Shown: in pieces, positions 17,200 to 49,414 of the stretch
Position numbering within the stretch: position 1 is the first letter of the stretch
Layout of the letters: each line of letters begins with the position of its first letter
DNA from: an uncultured Methanosarcinales archaeon
GTDB taxonomy: Archaea > Nanobdellota > Nanobdellia > Woesearchaeales > ARS49
Assembly (NCBI GenBank): GCA_964353335.1
Contig: CAYGVI010000003.1
Coordinates: 419,694 to 483,693 of the forward strand
Reading direction: 5' to 3'
Length of the DNA stretch: 64,000 nt
Made by a program: the position numbers and the translations under genes
Notes under the pieces: model-generated
The model's input: the letters and a program-made list of their open reading frames with translations, nothing else
The model's database searches: none
What the model was told of the DNA's origin: nothing

Positions 17200-17889
17200 A
17201 TGTATCGCGCCAATAAGCAGTCTTCCATGGACCTTGTTAGGGAGGCATTTAACGCGGTTTTTCCTGAAAAGCCGTATGTTTATTCTGCAGAGGTGAAGTA
17301 CTCTGGAAAGTTCAAGGGCTACAATGCGAACATCAGGCTCAGCAGGATGCAGAAGCATATCGTCCTTAATCTCAGCAGGCAGTGGAAAACAGTCTCAAGG
17401 GACATCCAGCTCGGCTTGGTCCAGCATTTGCTGTGCAGGCTGTTCAAGGAAAGGCGGGGCTCAACGCCGATGGACCTGTATAATTATTTCATCAAGAGCG
17501 TCCCAAGGACAATTGCAAAGACAAAAACAAATCCTGTCCTTGAAGCCAGCTTCAGGCGCGTAAATGATGGCTTTTTCAGCGGGATTGTCGAGCAGCCAAA
17601 CCTTGTGATTGGCAATGGAGTCACAAAGCTCGGCTCCTATGACCTTGGCACTGACACTGTAAGCATAAGCTCAATCCTTTTTGAGCATCCGCATTTGATG
17701 GACTATGTGATGTACCACGAATTACTGCACAAAAAGCACCAGTTCAAGGGCGCAGGATTAAAGCGCACTTTCCACAGCTCACAGTTCAGGAAAGACGAAA
17801 AGTCATACCCGAATTCAGCGCATCTGGAAAGGGAGCTTTCACAGCTTGTTTCAAGGGCAAAGAGAAGCTCATTCTGGGACTGGTTATGA
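17200..17889 (+). CDS. SprT/DUF45-like HExxH zinc metallopeptidase
   Basis: YVMYHELLHKKH motif near the C-terminus. Confidence 0.45.
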   Translation: MYRANKQSSMDLVREAFNAVFPEKPYVYSAEVKYSGKFKGYNANIRLSRMQKHIVLNLSRQWKTVSRDIQLGLVQHLLCRLFKERRGSTPMDLYNYFIKSVPRTIAKTKTNPVLEASFRRVNDGFFSGIVEQPNLVIGNGVTKLGSYDLGTDTVSISSILFEHPHLMDYVMYHELLHKKHQFKGAGLKRTFHSSQFRKDEKSYPNSAHLERELSQLVSRAKRSSFWDWL

Positions 17890-17944
17890 TTAACACCATA
17901 TTCTAACGAAAACTATTTAAATAGCCCTCTTTCCGAAAAGGATA

Positions 17945-40408: not shown

Positions 40409-41170
40409 TTATTTTAACATTCCGGCAATGGCTGCAATTGCCATTGCCGCAGTTTCTATTCTTAGAATATTCCTGCCAAGAGATGCGGGAATGCAGCCTG
40501 CCTTCTTCAGGGCTGCTTTTTCCTCGTCGGTAAAGCCCCCTTCTGGCCCGATAAAGGCAATAGCGCTCTTTGGCTTTTCCTGAAGGGCTTCAAGTATTGG
40601 CTTGCCTTCCTGGTCAAGCAGAAGCTTTAGCTTTGCGTCCTGCTTCAAAGCCTCTTCTATCGTCGATAAGGGTTTAAGTTCAGGTATCCAGGCCTGCTTG
40701 CTTTGCTTGCAGGCTTCTATCAGGATTCTTTGCCAGCGCTCCTGCTTTGCCTCGCGCGGAAGCACTACAGAATGCTCTGTTTTAAGGGGAATTATCGTCG
40801 ATACTCCTAATTCTGTGAGCTTTTGGAGCATCCAGTCAGCGCGGTCTCCTTTTGGCACTGCTACTGCTATTGCAAGGGAAAACTCGCTTTGGGCAACTTC
40901 ATGGCTTTCCAGAAGCCTTGCCTTACCTTCTTCAATAAGCTCTGCTATGTTTACTGTGCCCTTTCCGTTGAACAAGCTCACTTTATCCTTTGTTTCTAGC
41001 CTTTGAGCCTTCAAGTGCCTAACTTCTTCTGGGTCAAGCACTATTTCGCCCGTCTGGGGCAGTTCTGGTGCGTAAAACCAAGGATTGTCGTTTGGGTTCA
41101 TCATATACTCATTTGCCTCAAAATGCTTGCATTTTGATGACTTGCCGAACGCTGTTCGGCATCGCCTCAC
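40409..41170 (-). CDS. rsmE: 16S rRNA methyltransferase RsmE-like
   Basis: GPEGGFTDEE...LGRNILRIETAAMA C-terminal motif. The true start may be the internal MMNPNDNPW. Confidence 0.65.
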   Translation of the reverse strand: MRRCRTAFGKSSKCKHFEANEYMMNPNDNPWFYAPELPQTGEIVLDPEEVRHLKAQRLETKDKVSLFNGKGTVNIAELIEEGKARLLESHEVAQSEFSLAIAVAVPKGDRADWMLQKLTELGVSTIIPLKTEHSVVLPREAKQERWQRILIEACKQSKQAWIPELKPLSTIEEALKQDAKLKLLLDQEGKPILEALQEKPKSAIAFIGPEGGFTDEEKAALKKAGCIPASLGRNILRIETAAMAIAAIAGMLK

Positions 41171-41517
41171 TTTTGATGAATAATACCCCTATATTTAACC
41201 CTTTTGCTCCCTCAAATTGCTCACTTTTGGTCAAAAGCACTAGTTTTAGATAGTGCCTAACCTATCCTAAACCCTTTCTGAACTCTCACTTTTCACTCAC
41301 AAAGTCCCTCTTTCTGGCTCCTTCTTTACCCTTCAGGACGCCTCACTTTGACGCATATAGGCATTATGTGTTTTATTGGTTCTTAGGCACCAGCATTAGG
41401 CACTAGTAAGCCCTCCTGAAGGCCCCTTTTGCCCTGGGCCAAGATTGGCAACGGTTAGACCTTGCCTTCCCCCGTCTTGGCTCTCTTATGACATTCTTGT
41501 CGCACTATATTATATGG

Positions 41518-41960
41518 GCGCCACTGCCTCATTCCCAGTCATTCCCAGTCCCATTCTCATTCCCAGATAATCCCTGCCGGGAATAACCCTGCTTCGTTCC
41601 CAGTCCCAAACTTTTCGCAGCAGTTCCACAGATCAGTATTGCCCCATTGAGCGTTAGCGAAATGGGGCCAGCCAGCTTGCTGGCGCTGCCTCATTCCCAA
41701 CACCACATTCTCATTCCCAAACGTTCCCAGATAGTCCCACTCATTCCCAGCCTGTCGTCACGGAAAGTTTCCGATAGTCCCACTCTCATTCCCACTCATT
41801 CCCAGGATATTCCCGCCTCCGTCTCAACTCATTCCCAGCTCATTCCCAGATAGTCCCAAGTGGGAATGTGGGAATGACGTTTTACCGACGATAAAACGTT
41901 CCCAAAAGGCAGCTGATAGTCCCAAAACAGTCCTGGGAACGTCATGGGAAGGTCCTGGGA
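41518..41960. repeat. iteron/ORB-like repeat array: >=13 copies of (C)TCATTCCCA(G), 3 of ACGTTCCCAG and 4 of GATAGTCCCA in direct orientation, followed by inverted copies (TGGGAATGTGGGAATGACG; CTGGGAACGTCATGGGAAGGTCCTGGGACC)
   Basis: Seen directly in the sequence. There is also an 8-bp hairpin, GCCCCATT-12nt-AATGGGGC, at 41641-41668. The whole array sits in a ~770-bp non-coding region upstream of wHTH paralogue A. Confidence 0.7.
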
Positions 41961-42750
41961 CCGTCCCAAAAACAGCAGAAAAGAGGACAAAACAGGGTAT
42001 TGGAAAACTTTTTATACCTGCCCTTGTTTTCACTTTGCCATGGGGTGGCTTTTCGGAAAAGAGGTTGACGACAAGGTTGCGCAGCTTGACCGCGCTTTAA
42101 AGGACAGCTTTGCGCATGTCAAGCAGGACACGAACGCGATATACCAATGGCTCGCGTACTTCCAGCAGCAGACAGCCCGCCAAAACCAGCTCATAGAGGA
42201 GCAGCAGCACGACCTCGACGACTACGAGCAGGAAATAGTCAGGCAGAAACAGCTTATCGAGAGGATGCAAACGGAATTAAGGGATGTTCCAAAGGATTCT
42301 GAGACAATAAAGCGTATTATTGACGCGTATTACGATTTCGACACCATGGTAGAGCGTATGAGACAAATAGAGGATAAATTGCGCCATTTGGAGCACCAAA
42401 AGGCAGCTCCAGCAGTTCAGCAGATAAGGCACGAGGTCGAGGCATTGCCTCACATTGCCCCTCCACCGTCGAGAACACAGGCTTTGAGGGACAAGATTGT
42501 CCAGAGGATAACCAGGAATTCGAAGGAATACCTGAAGGGGCTTATCATGAGCATGATCACGAAATATGGCAAGATATCGGCGCTGCAGCTCAGGGAAATG
42601 CTCGTCGAGGAACAGGGCCTTGCCAGCAAGAGCAGCTTCTACAGGCTCTTAGAGGAGCTTGAGGATGAGTCTGCAATAGGAGTTATTCACGAAGGAAAGG
42701 AAAAGCTGCTTATGGTCGGAGGGCACCTGAAAAAGGCTGTTGGAAGATAG
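41944..42750 (+). CDS. coiled-coil protein with C-terminal winged-helix DNA-binding domain (putative regulator), paralogue A
   Basis: Gln/Glu-rich heptads, then ISALQLREMLVEEQGLASKSSFYRLLEELEDESAIGV (wHTH). The start may be the internal MGWLFGKEV. Confidence 0.45.
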   Translation: MGRSWDRPKNSRKEDKTGYWKTFYTCPCFHFAMGWLFGKEVDDKVAQLDRALKDSFAHVKQDTNAIYQWLAYFQQQTARQNQLIEEQQHDLDDYEQEIVRQKQLIERMQTELRDVPKDSETIKRIIDAYYDFDTMVERMRQIEDKLRHLEHQKAAPAVQQIRHEVEALPHIAPPPSRTQALRDKIVQRITRNSKEYLKGLIMSMITKYGKISALQLREMLVEEQGLASKSSFYRLLEELEDESAIGVIHEGKEKLLMVGGHLKKAVGR

Positions 42751-42818: not shown

Positions 42819-43388
42819 GTGGAAAGTTTGAAGTCAAAACAAGCAGTGTTAGTGCACAGGGACGAGGCAGGCGCAGAGCTTGCCATGAACTCAATTTTCG
42901 ACGCATTCAGGGAGGAGCTCGACGACCACAGGGCAGCGATTAACGAGAACACAAACGAGCTCCAGTCAAACCACGAATACATCCGTTCTGTCGAGGAAAA
43001 GGTCGACAAGATTCACGCCCGCATAGAGGAGCTTTTCCTTCTTGTCGAGGGCAAAAAAGCAGAGCAAAAAATCGAAATCCAGCCTTTGACAAAGCGCGAA
43101 CAGGAGGTCTTCCAGGCGCTTTATATCGTCGGAGAAGGCATCCCTTTTGTCAGCTACAAGCAGCTCGCCAGGAAGCTCAACATCTCTGACACGCTTATTT
43201 CAGGATTTATCACAAACCTCGTCGAGAAAGGGGTTCCAATCCTGAAAAAGTATGACGAAGGGCAGGCATTTGTGCAATTGGAGCCCAAATTCAGGCAGAA
43301 ACAGGCAAAAGAGGTAGTTATTGGCCTGAATTCTCTGTTGTCACACTGGATGCAGGCTCCTCAGGCTGTTCAGAAGCCCCAGCCCTGA
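42819..43388 (+). CDS. coiled-coil protein with C-terminal winged-helix DNA-binding domain, paralogue B
   Basis: LTKREQEVFQALYIVGEGIPFVSYKQLARKLNISDTLISGFITNLVEKGVPIL wHTH. The N-terminal ELDDHRAAINENTNELQ is similar to paralogue A. Confidence 0.45.
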   Translation: MESLKSKQAVLVHRDEAGAELAMNSIFDAFREELDDHRAAINENTNELQSNHEYIRSVEEKVDKIHARIEELFLLVEGKKAEQKIEIQPLTKREQEVFQALYIVGEGIPFVSYKQLARKLNISDTLISGFITNLVEKGVPILKKYDEGQAFVQLEPKFRQKQAKEVVIGLNSLLSHWMQAPQAVQKPQP

Positions 43389-43842
43389 GCTTTTCCTTCT
43401 TTATCTCGCTTTGAAGCTGTTCGATAAGCTTGAAAGAGCCATCCAAATGGGTTTTTATCGTCGATTCTGCCTTTCTGAACGCCCCTTCCAGGTTTGTGCC
43501 GTTCAGCTCATAACCGATGACAACTTTTCCATTGTTCACAAAGCTGGTTTTCTTGAGGATATTCAGGTCAAGCCAGCGGTGCAGATACTCGTACATTGTC
43601 TGGCGCTTTATGCCTGCGAAAGAGCCCATATCCTCGACGGGCATTACTGCCAGCTCAGGCTTTTTCTCCCTATTGGCAGCCTTCTTGCGCTCTGATAGCT
43701 CGAGAAGGAGCTTGTGCATCTGGGCGCTGCCGTCTTTTTTCCTCGGCAAAAGCCCAAAGCGGGCCAGAAGTGTCTTTGCGATATCCTCGGGAACTGCCTG
43801 TTCAGGCGCCTCTGAATGTTCGAGTTGGATTTTCATTTTCAA
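43318..43842 (-). CDS. hypothetical protein with putative wHTH (174 aa)
   Basis: MYEYLHRWLDLNILKKTSFVNNGKVVIGYEL. Confidence 0.4.
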   Translation of the reverse strand: MKMKIQLEHSEAPEQAVPEDIAKTLLARFGLLPRKKDGSAQMHKLLLELSERKKAANREKKPELAVMPVEDMGSFAGIKRQTMYEYLHRWLDLNILKKTSFVNNGKVVIGYELNGTNLEGAFRKAESTIKTHLDGSFKLIEQLQSEIKKEKLRAGASEQPEEPASSVTTENSGQ

Positions 43843-44327
43843 GGCGTTTAGACCTTCTGGTTAAAAAGCCTTGCGTAATCCCGACCAGTGTCCAGTGAAA
43901 CCCCAGAAAGTCGCACTTTGTGGAGTTTGCCGATGCCTCAGCGTCGGCATTAACCCGACAAAGGATGATTGAAACTGTCGCCAAAATGCCAGAATTTAGC
44001 CGTTTTCGCGTTTAAACCGCTTTAGAGCAGACTTTTTTCTCAAAATGGCTCAGAATACGGTACTTCAATGCATTTTTGAGCCATCAAACCCCAGATTAGC
44101 TAAAAATCCCGACTAAAACCACCTACCATCCCCATTCCAGATGTGCACAAAATTGTGGTTTCAGCGAAAATCCAGTCGGAGTCGGCAAAAACGCTGACTT
44201 TTCCTGATTTTCCCGACGAATAAGGTCAAGGTCGACCTGCTGCATACCCGTGGTTCTACACCAAAAGACCCACTTCGAGGCCCCACTATGAGTAATTCTG
44301 GCATTTTCCCTGACAAGTTTGAGTGCC

Positions 44328-44600
44328 TCAAAAACCTTTCAAAACCCTTGATTTGGTCAAAAACTGTTTCTGTAAAAAATTCATTTTAAATCGGTTGCTT
44401 TTTTTCGCCATTTTGCCGACGGAGCGCAGAACAATTACCTTTCGCAAGTGACAGTTGTAGCATAAAATAGAAATTAGGAAAATTGTTTCACAGAATATTC
44501 TTTTACAAAATATCTTTAACAAAAGTTGTCTTGCAAAGAATATTATCCAAAGCATATTTTCGTCTATATTTTTCTAAATAAGGAAAATAAAAACCAACCA
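44328..44600. other. AT-rich non-coding stretch (candidate DNA-unwinding element or promoter-rich region) within a 930-bp ORF-free region (43860..44793)
   Basis: Seen in sequence as long A/T runs. The track has only short low-complexity ORFs here. Confidence 0.4.
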
Positions 44601-44793
44601 TGAACAAAAGTGAGGGTAAGAAAGAAAGCATGAGCAAACGCAAAGTGCCTAACTTCCAGCAACATCCCAAGAGTCGCAGGCCAGAATCAGCCAAGATACC
44701 GACTCAGGAGCCAGAACGCCCTTAGGCACCAGAAAAATTGGGCATTAAAACATAAGAAAGTGACAGGGTTGAAGAACGAAAGTGAGAGAATGC

Positions 44794-45616: not shown

Positions 45617-48600
45617 ATGCCCGAAAACGCAGTGTTTGCGGTAGTGAACGACGCGAATGGTGACATTGATTTTCTCAGGAATCTTTTCTCAAAGCTTCCG
45701 CAGGCGGTCAGCAATGAAACAGAGAAAAAACTGGACTTAATTGCGCTTATCGGAAACACTCCTGGCTCGCAAATGAGCACTGAAGAGCTCAAGGAATTTG
45801 ACGAGCGCGCATGGCAATTGCTTTGTGACGAGTTTAATGCCAACCGCGAAGGCTGGCAAAAGAAAAAAGTAATGAATGCCGCAGACCTTGGCAGCATTTA
45901 CGCAGTTGACCCTTGCGGCAATCCTGCCAGCAAGCCTTTTAGGCATTACATCGGCGCTGTTGACACAGGCGGAATCCCTGTGGAAGGGATTCTTGTTCCG
46001 AGGTTCCGTAAATTCTACCGCGACCTTGGCGAGGCAATGAGGACTGCGAGGGGCGAGGGAATAAAAGTCAAGGTTATGGGAAACAATATCTTCCAAGTAG
46101 AGGCGCTTTCATCAGACAGTTATCTTGACTGGCAGAAGGTTGTAATCAACAGGCTGGGCATAACCAGCTCAGGGCTTGATGAAATCACAGATGCTGCTGA
46201 TGCGCCGCTGCTCGCTTATCGCAGCGGAAAATCAATTGAAGAGGACGAAGCTCTGAAAAGCACGTTCTTTTCAGATATGAAGGAATCAGGCGTGATTATA
46301 TGCAATTCAAACATACCTTCCAAGGAAAGGCTTATGACCGGCGAACGCTACATGATTATTGCAGGTCAAAAAAATCCAATTGCGCACGGCAAAATCGCGA
46401 TACGCGAATCAAACTACCTCCCAAGCAAGATTTTTGACGAGATTGCCCACAAGCTTCCGCACTCGCCTGTGGGTGTTTATGTTTTCGACGGCAGGGCAGG
46501 CGCGCACTTGCAGTTTGTCTGGCATACTGAGACAGGCGCGTTCCAAAAGGCATCAAAACACAACTTCAGGCTTCATGAGGACGCTGATGCAGAACAGACA
46601 CGGAATTTCAGCGGTGAACGCGTGCCTATTCGTCCGCCGGATGCAGACACTCCTCCCCCGGTTCCGAGCAGTGAACCAGCCCATTTCTCGCAGCCTGAAG
46701 CCGGCCAGGGAACACGGCCTTTGGCTCTTGAAGCGAGAATTCAGCAACTTGAAGGGCAGCTGGCTGCCGCTGAAAAAATACAGGGGCAGCTTGAGGATGA
46801 GAATGAAGCGATTGTAAGCAGGTCAATGAGGGTTATTGGAAAAGTAAAGCGGTGGGCCACTGAAAGAGTTGCAGCTGCAAAGAAGGATGCAGATGATGCA
46901 GATGCCTACCTGATGGATCACGTTGATGTTTTTACTCTTGTCAAGGATCTTGATGGTTATGTGACTGAGAAACATCCTGAATTCAAAGGAAAAAAGCCTG
47001 TTGAAAGGGTTCTTGGATACTTGAAATGGTTCACTGGTCTGGGAGCAACCATTGACGAGCTGAGGGCAAAGGCACAGGAGGGGCTTTCTTCAAAGGCAAG
47101 GGTCAGTGAGCTCGAGCAGCAAATTGGTGCTAAAAATCAGGAGTTTGAATCAATACAATCGCTCTATGAGCAGGCAGTTGAGCCTCTTGCCAAGCGCCTG
47201 AAGGCAATATGTGGCGGCAGAATCCAGGCTGAAAATCCCCGCGATATACTGGAACAGGTTGCAGGGCTTGTCCAAAGCGGCGAGTTTGAACCTGAATCTG
47301 ATGATAAGTTGAAGCAGCAGTACGAAGCGTTTGAGCGGCAGCGTGTTGGATACGAACAGTCTGCTGCGAAAATACAGGAAGGGCACAAAAAGGCGCGCGA
47401 AGCTGACAAAAAGGAACATGATGCAGAAATTGAGAGGCTCACCAGCGAGCAAGTCACACAATTGAATTCCCGTAATGATGATGTTGATAGCGCACGCGAA
47501 GAGCGCGACCAGGAAAAAGAAAAAGCATTGAACCTGGAAAGAACTGCTGAAAGAAAACAAAAAGAACACGCAGCGCTTGAACAACGACTTGAAACCGCAG
47601 CCACAGAACTTGAAGCACTGCGAAAAGGCCAGCCAGACGCCGGAGAATTATCCAAGCTCAGGCAGGGGCGCGAAGCTGACAAACAGACGTATGATACCGA
47701 AATCGCTGCCAAACAAAAGGAAATTGACAGCCACAAAACCGAGTTGGAAACCAGGCGCAAGAAGCTTGAACACGCAGACAAAATGTTCGGCGCAGTTGCG
47801 AAAATCATTGAATCTGTTGCTCCCTATCTGAAAACAAGGTTTGGAAACAAACTGGTTGAAACAGACCCCATGAAAGTACTTGTAGAATTCAAAACTAAGG
47901 CGCTGAAGGCAGGAGATGAGCCAGGAGCAGGCGAAATTGAGAAGCGCATTGCAGAAATTGAAGCACAGCGTGCGGCTCTTGAACAAGAAAACAACAAACT
48001 GAAAGGCGATTATGCGACAGCCCAAACAAGTATTGGGCAAGTCAAGAATGCTGCTGAACTCCAGCTTACAGAAGTGCGAAAGGGCTATGATGAACAGCTT
48101 GCTGTAAAAGTAAGGGAATACGCTGCCCTTGAACAGAGGCGCCAAACCTCAGAACAAAAGTATGGCAAGGCTGTGGAGGATCGCACTGATCTTGAAGAAC
48201 GGTTGAAAAAGACGCGCGAAGAACATGGCAAAGCGCTTGGTGAACAGCGCACAGGCTTTGAAAAACAGCTTGGCGATGCGCGCAAGCAGTATGAAGCAGA
48301 CCTTAAACGCGCAAGGGAAGAGAAAGGCGAGCCAGACACTAAGCTTGCTGCAAAAGTTACTGAGCTTGAACAGAAGCTGGAGAAAGCAGGCAAGGACTTG
48401 GCTGCAAATCGCAAAAAAATGCAGGAAGCGCATGCAAAAGCTCTTGCAGAAAAGGACAAGTCACACACTGATGCTCTTACAAGGAAGGACACTCAGCGCG
48501 AGGCAATGGAGACTCAGTATCGCCGCGAAGTTGGGAAGAAGGATCAGGAATTGCAGGAGAAGGCAGATGAAATATTGCGCATTCGCAGGAATGCTGCAGC

Positions 48601-49414
48601 GCCTGACGACCTTGTCGCGATTGTGCGCAACTGGGCATCAGCCCATCCTGTGAAGGCGCCAAGGGTCAATATCCCGAAAGGAGCGCGCTTTGAAAAAGTG
48701 CTGGAAGGCATGCGGGCAAGAATTGAGAAAAACAAGGCATATGATAATTTCAAGGAGCCACTGCTTGAAGCTTATGACGCGATGCTGCACGGCGGCGGTT
48801 ATGCAAAGCGCATCAATAACCTGAAGGAAGTTATCGGCAGTAATGCATGCGAACTGGTGAATACGCGAGCGAACCGCGAGCTCAGGACACTTGTCGCGGT
48901 AAGCAGGATGTATCTTGGCAGGACTTCATTTGCGAAGAACAATCCGAAGGAATATGCCCTGCTTTGCGAGCTCCAGTCAGGTCTGCCATTGGGCTATGTT
49001 GCCTCATTGTGGGACCAAATCCGCGCCATTGAAAATGACAAGGATGAGCTTGAGGGCAGGATTTCAAGGCTGCACGACGATTACAACTCAGCACGCTCAA
49101 TAGCAGACTACGCAGACAAAGCACTGTATGCTTCGACAGGGCTTTCTGGCAATGCAAAAATCAGGAAGCTTCAGTATGCGTGCAGGAACTACAGGGTGGC
49201 GCGCGAGGGTGTTCCATTTGATGCTGCAAAGCAGAACTGCTCTTTCAATATTGGAATGTGCCTTGCATTGATTGCAAGCGAAACGCACAATGAGGATAAG
49301 TTTGAGGAAGCACTAAGCGAGTTTAAGCTGGCGCCAAAGAGTGCTTCGAGAAAAGACTGGATGGATTATTGCAAAGGGGAGATTAAATTTGCGCCGGTCG
49401 CACGGGTGGCATAG
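45617..49414 (+). CDS. giant coiled-coil protein (1265 aa) with globular N- and C-terminal domains
   Basis: Continuous ORF. The N-terminal ~330 aa is globular with a possible degenerate calcineurin-like pattern (VVNDANGDIDF ... LIALIGNTPG). A Pro-rich linker is followed by ~600 aa of K/E/A/Q/R-rich heptads and a ~250-aa C-terminal globular domain. Confidence 0.6.
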   Translation: MPENAVFAVVNDANGDIDFLRNLFSKLPQAVSNETEKKLDLIALIGNTPGSQMSTEELKEFDERAWQLLCDEFNANREGWQKKKVMNAADLGSIYAVDPCGNPASKPFRHYIGAVDTGGIPVEGILVPRFRKFYRDLGEAMRTARGEGIKVKVMGNNIFQVEALSSDSYLDWQKVVINRLGITSSGLDEITDAADAPLLAYRSGKSIEEDEALKSTFFSDMKESGVIICNSNIPSKERLMTGERYMIIAGQKNPIAHGKIAIRESNYLPSKIFDEIAHKLPHSPVGVYVFDGRAGAHLQFVWHTETGAFQKASKHNFRLHEDADAEQTRNFSGERVPIRPPDADTPPPVPSSEPAHFSQPEAGQGTRPLALEARIQQLEGQLAAAEKIQGQLEDENEAIVSRSMRVIGKVKRWATERVAAAKKDADDADAYLMDHVDVFTLVKDLDGYVTEKHPEFKGKKPVERVLGYLKWFTGLGATIDELRAKAQEGLSSKARVSELEQQIGAKNQEFESIQSLYEQAVEPLAKRLKAICGGRIQAENPRDILEQVAGLVQSGEFEPESDDKLKQQYEAFERQRVGYEQSAAKIQEGHKKAREADKKEHDAEIERLTSEQVTQLNSRNDDVDSAREERDQEKEKALNLERTAERKQKEHAALEQRLETAATELEALRKGQPDAGELSKLRQGREADKQTYDTEIAAKQKEIDSHKTELETRRKKLEHADKMFGAVAKIIESVAPYLKTRFGNKLVETDPMKVLVEFKTKALKAGDEPGAGEIEKRIAEIEAQRAALEQENNKLKGDYATAQTSIGQVKNAAELQLTEVRKGYDEQLAVKVREYAALEQRRQTSEQKYGKAVEDRTDLEERLKKTREEHGKALGEQRTGFEKQLGDARKQYEADLKRAREEKGEPDTKLAAKVTELEQKLEKAGKDLAANRKKMQEAHAKALAEKDKSHTDALTRKDTQREAMETQYRREVGKKDQELQEKADEILRIRRNAAAPDDLVAIVRNWASAHPVKAPRVNIPKGARFEKVLEGMRARIEKNKAYDNFKEPLLEAYDAMLHGGGYAKRINNLKEVIGSNACELVNTRANRELRTLVAVSRMYLGRTSFAKNNPKEYALLCELQSGLPLGYVASLWDQIRAIENDKDELEGRISRLHDDYNSARSIADYADKALYASTGLSGNAKIRKLQYACRNYRVAREGVPFDAAKQNCSFNIGMCLALIASETHNEDKFEEALSEFKLAPKSASRKDWMDYCKGEIKFAPVARVA

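Follow-up and report, generated by a model that had tools for sequence, protein, structure and literature searches.

A helically phased array of TCCCA repeats at the promoter of an orphan winged-helix gene operon in Woesearchaeales

The stretch of DNA studied here, hereafter called the window, comprises 64,000 nucleotides of contig CAYGVI010000003.1 (GenBank assembly GCA_964353335.1, positions 419,694 to 483,693 of the forward strand) and derives from a metagenome-assembled genome (MAG) of the order Woesearchaeales (DPANN, Nanobdellota) that was deposited as an uncultured Methanosarcinales archaeon. It contains an array of 25 short repeats, or iterons, with the core TCCCA (41528-41970, + strand; 20 direct and five inverted copies), recognized by its enrichment, its periodicity and the homologous arrays in relatives. 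The array lies in a long non-coding region directly upstream of two genes for helix-turn-helix (HTH) proteins, which we call A and B. To the left, this region is bordered by a gene for an rsmE-type RNA methyltransferase (40409-41101, - strand), whose start is most likely at 41101, as judged from a 230-aa gene call in sister contigs. Gene A (42040-42750, + strand) most likely starts with the ATG at 42040, approximately 24 nt past a TATA box. A preliminary description of this DNA had placed two winged-helix proteins immediately downstream of the repeats; both HTH genes are indeed present, but the start at 41944 which it assigned to A is unlikely, since the sister contigs call the ATG at 42040 and an element resembling a B recognition element (BRE) and TATA box sits 24 nt upstream of this codon. 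With these two gene starts, the non-coding stretch extends from 41102 to 42039. Identical copies of gene A were found in contigs of GCA_041480225.1 and in one MAG labeled 'Candidatus Nanoarchaeia', and its homologs are named Woesearchaeota. The region had been described as devoid of credible genes, and this holds: neither in 41102-42039 nor in a second non-coding region at 43843-44793 did variation and substitutions show a 3-nt periodicity, for which reason a hidden protein-coding gene was rejected for both.

The array is real and far beyond chance. Between 41533 and 41968, 25 TCCCA core sites (20 on the + and five on the - strand) were counted, whereas 0.77 per 476 bp would be expected from the average of the window, and nowhere else in the 64 kb do TCCCA sites cluster in a comparable way. 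The repeated unit can be written approximately as A-Y-A-[G/T]-TCCCA-[A/G]. Of the 16 copies of CATTCCCA in the window, 12 fall inside the array compared to 2.6 ± 1.4 in shuffled sequences, and none of 100 shuffles reached 12; outside the array, the iteron 7-mer occurs at chance level throughout the 64 kb and forms no phased pairs. The strings quoted in the preliminary description were all found where it had put them, namely CTCATTCCCAGTCATTCCCAG at 41528, TGGGAATGTGGGAATGACG at 41861, CCTGGGAACGTCATGGGAAGGTCCTGGGACC at 41932, GCCCCATT at 41641 and AATGGGGC at 41661. Its count of at least 13 direct copies was overstated, as the array contains seven direct copies of TCATTCCCAG and ten direct plus one inverted copy of TCATTCCCA, while the four copies of GATAGTCCCA were confirmed; ACGTTCCCA is present in two direct and one inverted copies. 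The period of 10 bp given there also has to be corrected. The phase measured from pair distances is 11.0 bp (resultant R = 0.53 at T = 11.0), a value reached by none of 2000 random placements. Still, the broader proposal of an array with helical phasing and copies in both orientations, such as a sequence-specific protein would bind, is supported by the 25 sites, their 20 direct and five inverted copies and their period of 11.0 bp.

The inverted iteron pair TGGGAATGTGGGAATGACG is located at 41861-41879 (- strand), and the array is closed by three inverted TGGGA sites with 11-bp spacing (41932-41962), which together with one subsequent direct TCCCA form an operator-like, promoter-proximal block (41932-41968). 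The distal iteron runs have expanded to approximately 450 bp in the clade of the window. Near-identical strains differ by the gain or loss of single units of 11-12 bp, so that the register is kept. The preliminary description had further listed a perfect 8-bp hairpin, whose arms GCCCCATT (41641) and AATGGGGC (41661) exist but are not conserved: two near-identical strains (L001 and L006) lack the segment of approximately 49 nt that carries it and contain another hairpin-bearing insert elsewhere. Segments of approximately 50-70 nt with two hairpins each were found to be present or absent between near-identical strains (41623-41686 of the window versus 9050-10006 of L001).

For comparison, 80 loci from species-representative genomes were retrieved by a profile search with protein A and analyzed as 12-kb loci (±6 kb); 76 of them were evaluable for array density and for a palindrome described below, 74 for the CTCACTTTT boxes, and 29 diverse ones were used for a promoter alignment. 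All 80 stem from Woesearchaeota or Nanoarchaeia-type MAGs, a few of them mislabeled, with protein A identities down to 35% and GC contents from 29% to 55%. The gene order is that of a core chromosomal region, namely UPP synthase, a hypothetical gene, RpoL, (rsmE), non-coding DNA, A, B, C (- strand), non-coding DNA and PAC2. Gene A always adjoins the array, and B adjoins in 78 of the 80 loci. Variants of TTCCCA or GTCCCA were the most over-represented hexamers upstream of the A homolog in every one of the 80 loci, and in all 76 evaluable loci the 200-bp segment with the highest TCCCA density of the entire 12 kb was the one directly upstream of A (median of eight sites per 200 bp versus two elsewhere). 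Pooled over the loci, 881 TCCCA sites were obtained, 80% of them direct. Neighboring direct sites were most often spaced by 11 bp (212 cases), followed by 10 bp (78), 22 bp (49) and 33 bp (26), with further spacings of 44-45 and 55 bp. Spacing at whole multiples of 11 fits a protein that sits on one face of B-DNA, whereas recognition as RNA would not require such a register. As far as these comparisons can tell, the array is an order-wide, helically phased set of putative protein-binding sites at the promoter of the A-B operon. A limited literature search yielded no published description of this element.

The position of the repeats relative to the promoter is conserved as well. In the window, a putative BRE (GGAAAAC) and a TATA box (TTTTTATA, 42009-42016) that agree with the archaeal promoter consensus precede gene A at 42002-42016 (+ strand), and an equivalent element, cgaaa-tttaaata, is found at the same place in relatives. 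Since the ATG follows 24 nt past the TATA box, a leader in the mRNA would be absent or very short. The last 170 bp before A follow a common plan in the 29 diverse loci: distal iterons, a near-palindrome (TTATCGTCGATAA), three to four proximal iterons, the BRE/TATA element and, approximately 25-30 nt later, the start codon. Only a few bp separate the last iteron from the BRE downstream of it in relatives, and in the window the distance from the end of the array to the TATA box is 40 bp. Across loci, inverted sites are concentrated within 120 bp of the gene A start, with the share of - strand sites amounting to 62% at 20-40 bp from it versus 7-12% at 120-280 bp. In 15 of the 80 loci a TGGGA was detected no more than 14 nt downstream of the TATA box. 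Archaeal repressors classically bind just past the TATA box. The sites thus have a fixed placement relative to the BRE/TATA of the putative regulator's own gene, as expected for an operator array. Among the possibilities raised in the preliminary description, the one of an autoregulatory winged HTH protein therefore fits best, given that the array abuts the gene A BRE/TATA in all 80 relatives and that inverted sites lie near the promoter or just past the TATA box.

The near-palindrome is represented in the window by ACGTTTTACCGACGATAAAACGT (family consensus TTATCGTCGATAA), which lies inside the array at 41877-41899 with a core at 41882-41894 and one mismatch on the - strand. A copy with at most two mismatches is present in 47 of the 76 evaluable loci at a median position of -132 from gene A, compared to matches in 3.5% of background tiles. 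TTATCGTCGATAA is also over-represented across the window (34 versus 8.6 copies with at most three mismatches). Additional copies were located at 40657, 40792, 42801, 43455 and 63500, the last one being exact. In relatives the palindrome recurs before A, B and C and near the RpoL start, and it may be the operator of a small regulon.

Further upstream, between the rsmE gene and the array, four CTCACTTTT-type boxes with the sequence CTCACTTT(T) were found at 41166, 41220, 41285 and 41342 (41166-41349, + strand), all oriented toward gene A. They are interleaved with TTAGGCAC/GTGCCTAA boxes at 41253 (- strand), 41383 and 41396, and one more CTCACTTT box lies inside rsmE at 40977. All 74 loci evaluable for the CTCACTTTT boxes contain them, in three to seven copies with variable spacing and in one orientation toward A, with some located inside the rsmE coding sequence. 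Between -1100 and -350, CTCACTT occurs 294 times in these 74 loci versus 3.3 expected. Where gene C is present, mirrored boxes of this type (AAAGTGAG) are found upstream of C and oriented to it, in the window at 44607 and 44779. These belong to the second conserved non-coding region mentioned above, which extends over approximately 950 bp upstream of gene C (43843-44793) and, next to the AAAGTGAG boxes, contains TCCCGAC boxes upstream of C, GTGCCTAA/TTAGGCAC boxes at 44645 and 44722 and an AT-rich stretch of approximately 150 bp (44440-44600, 24% GC). It aligns to relatives nearly without indels at 74-78% identity, whereas the fourfold sites of the flanking genes reach 41-58% in the same comparisons. 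It yielded no Rfam match, and RNAalifold applied to the + strand of its conserved core gave neither a consensus structure nor covariation (-2.4 kcal/mol). An identity above that of fourfold sites, the missing coding periodicity, the missing Rfam match and the missing consensus RNA structure in the one core tested indicate that both non-coding regions are under strong selection as DNA. Judged from this conservation, the array is one module of a larger, strongly constrained non-coding region with a putative control function, conserved in every Woesearchaeales genome examined. The palindrome before A, B, C and RpoL and the CTCACTTTT boxes before A and C give the locus the look of an interlocked circuit of three lineage-specific HTH regulators.

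These three regulators are encoded between the two long non-coding regions. Protein A (236 aa) consists of an N-terminal helix of 80 residues forming a coiled coil, a disordered linker and a C-terminal winged helix. It is an orphan family found in Woesearchaeales, which belongs to no Pfam or NCBIfam family, matches no profile of Rep proteins or initiators and has no sequence relative in the PDB; its structure matches only generic winged-helix proteins, namely MecI, ArsR, PadR, Hop2 and TubR. Gene B (starting at 42828 or 42885 and ending at 43388, + strand) encodes a protein with a helical N-terminus and a GerE/HTH-like C-terminus that shows weak matches to GerE, HTH_24 and a BirA-type HTH. Both A and B contain long coiled coils. 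The idea that they are paralogs was rejected, as no similarity between them could be detected. Likewise, no clear link was found between the G/T variant of the iterons and residues of protein A, most arrays being mixed and the signal being confounded by phylogeny. A two-protein model with alternating ATTCCCA and AGTCCCA sites was also discarded, as the observed alternation (123) was only marginally above that of within-locus shuffles (107.6 ± 7.4). Gene C (43318-43836, - strand) encodes 172 aa with a winged helix and a long C-terminal helix. It is found at the locus in 36 of the 80 genomes, with 65-90% identity across the order. Its structural matches (TFE-alpha, MarR, ArsR) are weak and generic, the best one being Pyrococcus TFE-alpha (Foldseek E = 2e-3); as a weak lead from this structural similarity, C might be a divergent general transcription factor. 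Genes B and C are convergent, and their 3′ ends overlap by approximately 70 nt (43318-43388).

Two other observations were made in the window. Another gap without open reading frames (ORFs), 558 bp in length, is located at 17359-17916. An ORF of 1265 aa at 45617-49414 contains no Pfam domain and is recognizable only in the closest relatives (22-81% identity).

Taken together, we consider it somewhat better than an even bet that the TCATTCCCAG-type repeats are 11-bp helically phased sites for the adjacent winged-helix protein and form a cooperative operator/activator array through which this protein regulates its own synthesis. The array would then probably be a protein docking platform that controls the A-B promoter, with protein A, possibly together with B, as the most likely binder. 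According to this proposal, A would dimerize via its long N-terminal coiled coil, and the two winged-helix domains of the dimer, held on flexible linkers, would occupy neighboring units on one face of the DNA. Further dimers, added one after another, could in this way assemble cooperatively into a nucleoprotein array terminating at the BRE/TATA of the A-B operon. The direct sites just upstream of the BRE would recruit or stabilize TBP/TFB and thereby activate transcription, while the inverted sites at or just past the TATA box would turn the promoter off at high protein levels.

Several points weigh against the operator/activator proposal. The putative binder is proposed from its adjacency to the array only. 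Both the number of sites, up to 29, and the approximately 900 bp of constrained non-coding sequence flanking the operon on either side go far beyond what known autoregulated promoters of archaea need, and the CTCACTTTT boxes, at 350-1100 bp from the promoters, are beyond the usual range of archaeal regulators. The AT-rich elements of 100-150 bp beside the repeats hint at an additional, non-transcriptional role. Furthermore, inverted repeats would be a more natural target than direct ones for a homodimer held by a parallel coiled coil.

The 11-bp TCCCA pattern in itself is not specific. Viral contigs scanned for four TCCCA with a spacing of 11 bp contained at least 120 tandem arrays of 11-bp period that are unrelated to the present one and lack homologs of A, B or C, and phased arrays of this kind are common in phages. 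One of them, in an IMG/VR phage contig (L140, 6540-6610), consists of AGTCCCA repeats at 11-bp spacing between the genes for a transcriptional activator and a small terminase. It provides no evidence on the archaeal locus and serves as an analogy, a reminder that arrays of this type may act as docking platforms for oligomeric HTH proteins.

Beyond its promoter role, the locus might be a chromosomal landmark, either an Orc1-independent iteron origin or a centromere, with A and B encoded in cis and autoregulated via the same repeats; we regard this as possible but doubtful. The preliminary description had thought of an origin of the Orc1/Cdc6 type with origin recognition boxes (ORBs). Such an origin is not supported at this site. 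Neither the window, which reaches from -42 to +22 kb, nor any of the 80 genomes within ±6 kb contains an Orc1/Cdc6-like ORF. A Pfam scan of the 30 largest or nearest ORFs of the window detected no Cdc6 or other AAA initiator, the only P-loop ORFs of the window are two GTPases (aIF5B/IF-2 and DRG-type), and no Walker-A ORF of 280-520 aa was found within ±6 kb in any of the 80 genomes. A search of the window for CCAGTGGAAA or TCCA..GGAAA gave no ORB or mini-ORB; a single TCCAGTGAAA is located at 43891 at the gene C promoter and shared only by the closest relatives and one further locus (L022). The absence of any ORB consensus agrees with the earlier view that the motif is lineage-specific and unlike canonical ORBs. 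Passages of a preprint on 208 complete Nanobdellota genomes, which were rotated to orc1/cdc6, report Orc1/Cdc6 in 206 of them and contain no origin test (bioRxiv 10.64898/2026.05.13.725050); this prevalence counts against an origin independent of Orc1. An Orc1-independent origin, in which A or B as a local winged-helix initiator would bind the TCCCA iterons and melt an AT-rich element while the inverted promoter sites mediate autorepression as in RepA, RepE and pi plasmids, is unproven and in our view unlikely. The layout of the locus does parallel that of iteron replicons, with direct phased repeats followed by inverted ones at the promoter of an adjacent winged-helix gene. The most AT-rich 100 bp of the locus lie just upstream of the iterons (-250 to -500) in 22 of the 80 loci or upstream of C (+2000 to +3000) in 24, both positions are flanked by CTCACTTTT boxes, and both long non-coding regions are strongly constrained. 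AT-rich minima thus tend to lie next to the arrays in many loci, but a low GC content is expected of promoter regions in any case. Protein A, with its one winged helix and coiled coil, also lacks the WH1-WH2 architecture of Rep proteins. The check on GC skew that had been proposed at first seemed favorable, as the raw cumulative skew has its minimum at 44-46 kb of the window. This minimum was rejected as evidence because it reflects gene strand: with gene strand controlled, no switch is seen at fourfold sites, neither in the window nor across the 80 loci (side effect on GC skew of -0.013, bootstrap confidence interval -0.044 to 0.016; AT skew of the same sign on both flanks). These genomes may lack replication skew. 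The strand on which gene A lies is rich in T at fourfold sites on both flanks, whatever the orientation of the genes (AT skew of approximately -0.15 to -0.21; loci L007-L086); if linked to replication, this would mean that forks cross the locus in one direction.

We likewise consider it improbable that the locus is a centromere-like or chromosome-organizing site, at which a filament or ring of coiled-coil winged-helix proteins, a segrosome like those of ParR-parC, TubR-tubC or the omega heptads, would position or segregate the chromosome with autoregulation of the operon as a side effect. parC consists of ten 11-bp iterons, and the arrangement of parC and tubC is established in plasmids R1 and pBtoxis. 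Tandem 11-bp direct repeats upstream of the presumed binder's operon, as in these two sites, the long coiled coils of A and B and the occurrence of a single site in core syntenic position (one in the 64 kb of the window and one in each 12-kb locus) speak for such a function. No NTPase of the ParA, ParM or TubZ type is encoded in the operon, which consists of A and B only, or elsewhere in the window, however, the fold similarity is generic, and the data do not distinguish a segrosome from an operator array. Two further explanations fare considerably worse. A non-coding RNA with repeated UGGGAAUGA (- strand) that titrates an RNA-binding protein in the manner of CsrB/RsmZ would agree with a long constrained non-coding region and approximately 20 same-strand copies of a GGA-containing motif. 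It is nevertheless very improbable, since spacings on exact multiples of 11 (22, 33, 44, 55) belong to the DNA helix rather than to a sponge RNA, inverted copies make up 20% of the sites and cluster at the promoter, and the array ends at a BRE/TATA facing gene A. In addition, no Rfam match was obtained at the gathering threshold or at E = 1, and the sole folding test, made on the core of the second non-coding region and not on the array, gave no consensus structure. A neutral tandem or satellite repeat, or a functionless remnant of a mobile element such as a miniature inverted-repeat transposable element (MITE), could account for the copy numbers that differ between strains and for the hairpin-bearing segments of approximately 50-70 nt that come and go. 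This explanation is hardly credible and appears effectively refuted by the conservation data, as the array is found at the same promoter in every evaluable locus (76 of 76) across deep divergence, its core is invariant while the flanks drift, and the surrounding synteny is that of core genes. The preliminary description had named a dispersed MITE-like family as a finding that would speak against it; no dispersed copies were found in the 64 kb, the motif being confined to this locus.

The genomes of DPANN archaea are streamlined, and there is next to no knowledge of gene regulation and chromosome biology in this group. Against this background, the locus combines approximately 1.9 kb of non-coding DNA, constrained like the surrounding coding sequence and core syntenic, with at least four conserved motif families and three orphan HTH proteins. 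The array offers a concrete and testable protein-DNA system with known candidate binders, a defined DNA and a predicted footprint of 11-bp periodicity. Should it be no more than a promoter element, we would know of no more elaborate operator/activating array in archaea. If the locus were instead an origin or a centromere, it would represent a lineage-specific initiator or segregation system, equivalent on an archaeal chromosome to the Rep/iteron or ParR/parC systems of plasmids and maintained across an entire order of DPANN archaea, and as such would correct the practice of assuming the origin at orc1.

Among known systems, the iterons of theta plasmids (RepA of pPS10, RepE of F, pi of R6K) resemble the array in their direct repeats in helical register beside a winged-helix gene, in the inverted copies at or over the promoter of this gene, which suggest autorepression, and in the AT-rich stretch beside the repeats that is seen in many relatives. 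The unit described here, however, measures 11 bp instead of approximately 19-22 bp, and a Rep initiator gene is missing, as protein A with its single winged helix and coiled coil shows no homology to Rep proteins of the WH1-WH2 type. The locus also occupies a core syntenic position on an archaeal chromosome, with neither a skew switch nor an initiator ATPase nearby. Partition centromeres (parC/ParR of R1, tubC/TubR of pBtoxis and pBM400, omega heptads of pSM19035) share with it the many short tandem repeats (11-12 bp in parC and tubC) upstream of the operon of the binder, which at the present locus is a presumed one. By analogy, cooperative binding on one face of the DNA, an array that doubles as operator and, in TubR, a winged helix could also be paralleled, binding being a proposal in the present case. 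In contrast to these plasmid systems, the array is chromosomal and archaeal, is not accompanied by a gene for an NTPase motor, is broken up by a separate conserved palindrome and forms part of a far larger collection of motifs. With archaeal origins of the Orc1/Cdc6 type it has in common a long conserved intergenic region, repeats in both orientations and an AT-rich stretch, but an ORB consensus, an adjacent orc1/cdc6 and a skew switch are all missing, and such origins contain a few ORBs of 20-35 bp flanking a DNA unwinding element as opposed to long tandem runs of 11-bp units. Finally, the upstream activating sites of archaea, such as those of Ptr2 in Methanocaldococcus, and operators overlapping the TATA box or transcription start site show the same division into sites directly upstream of the BRE/TATA, as for an activator, and others at or past the TATA box, as for a repressor; the known examples, however, consist of one or two dimer sites, whereas 3-29 phased sites are found at the A-B promoter.

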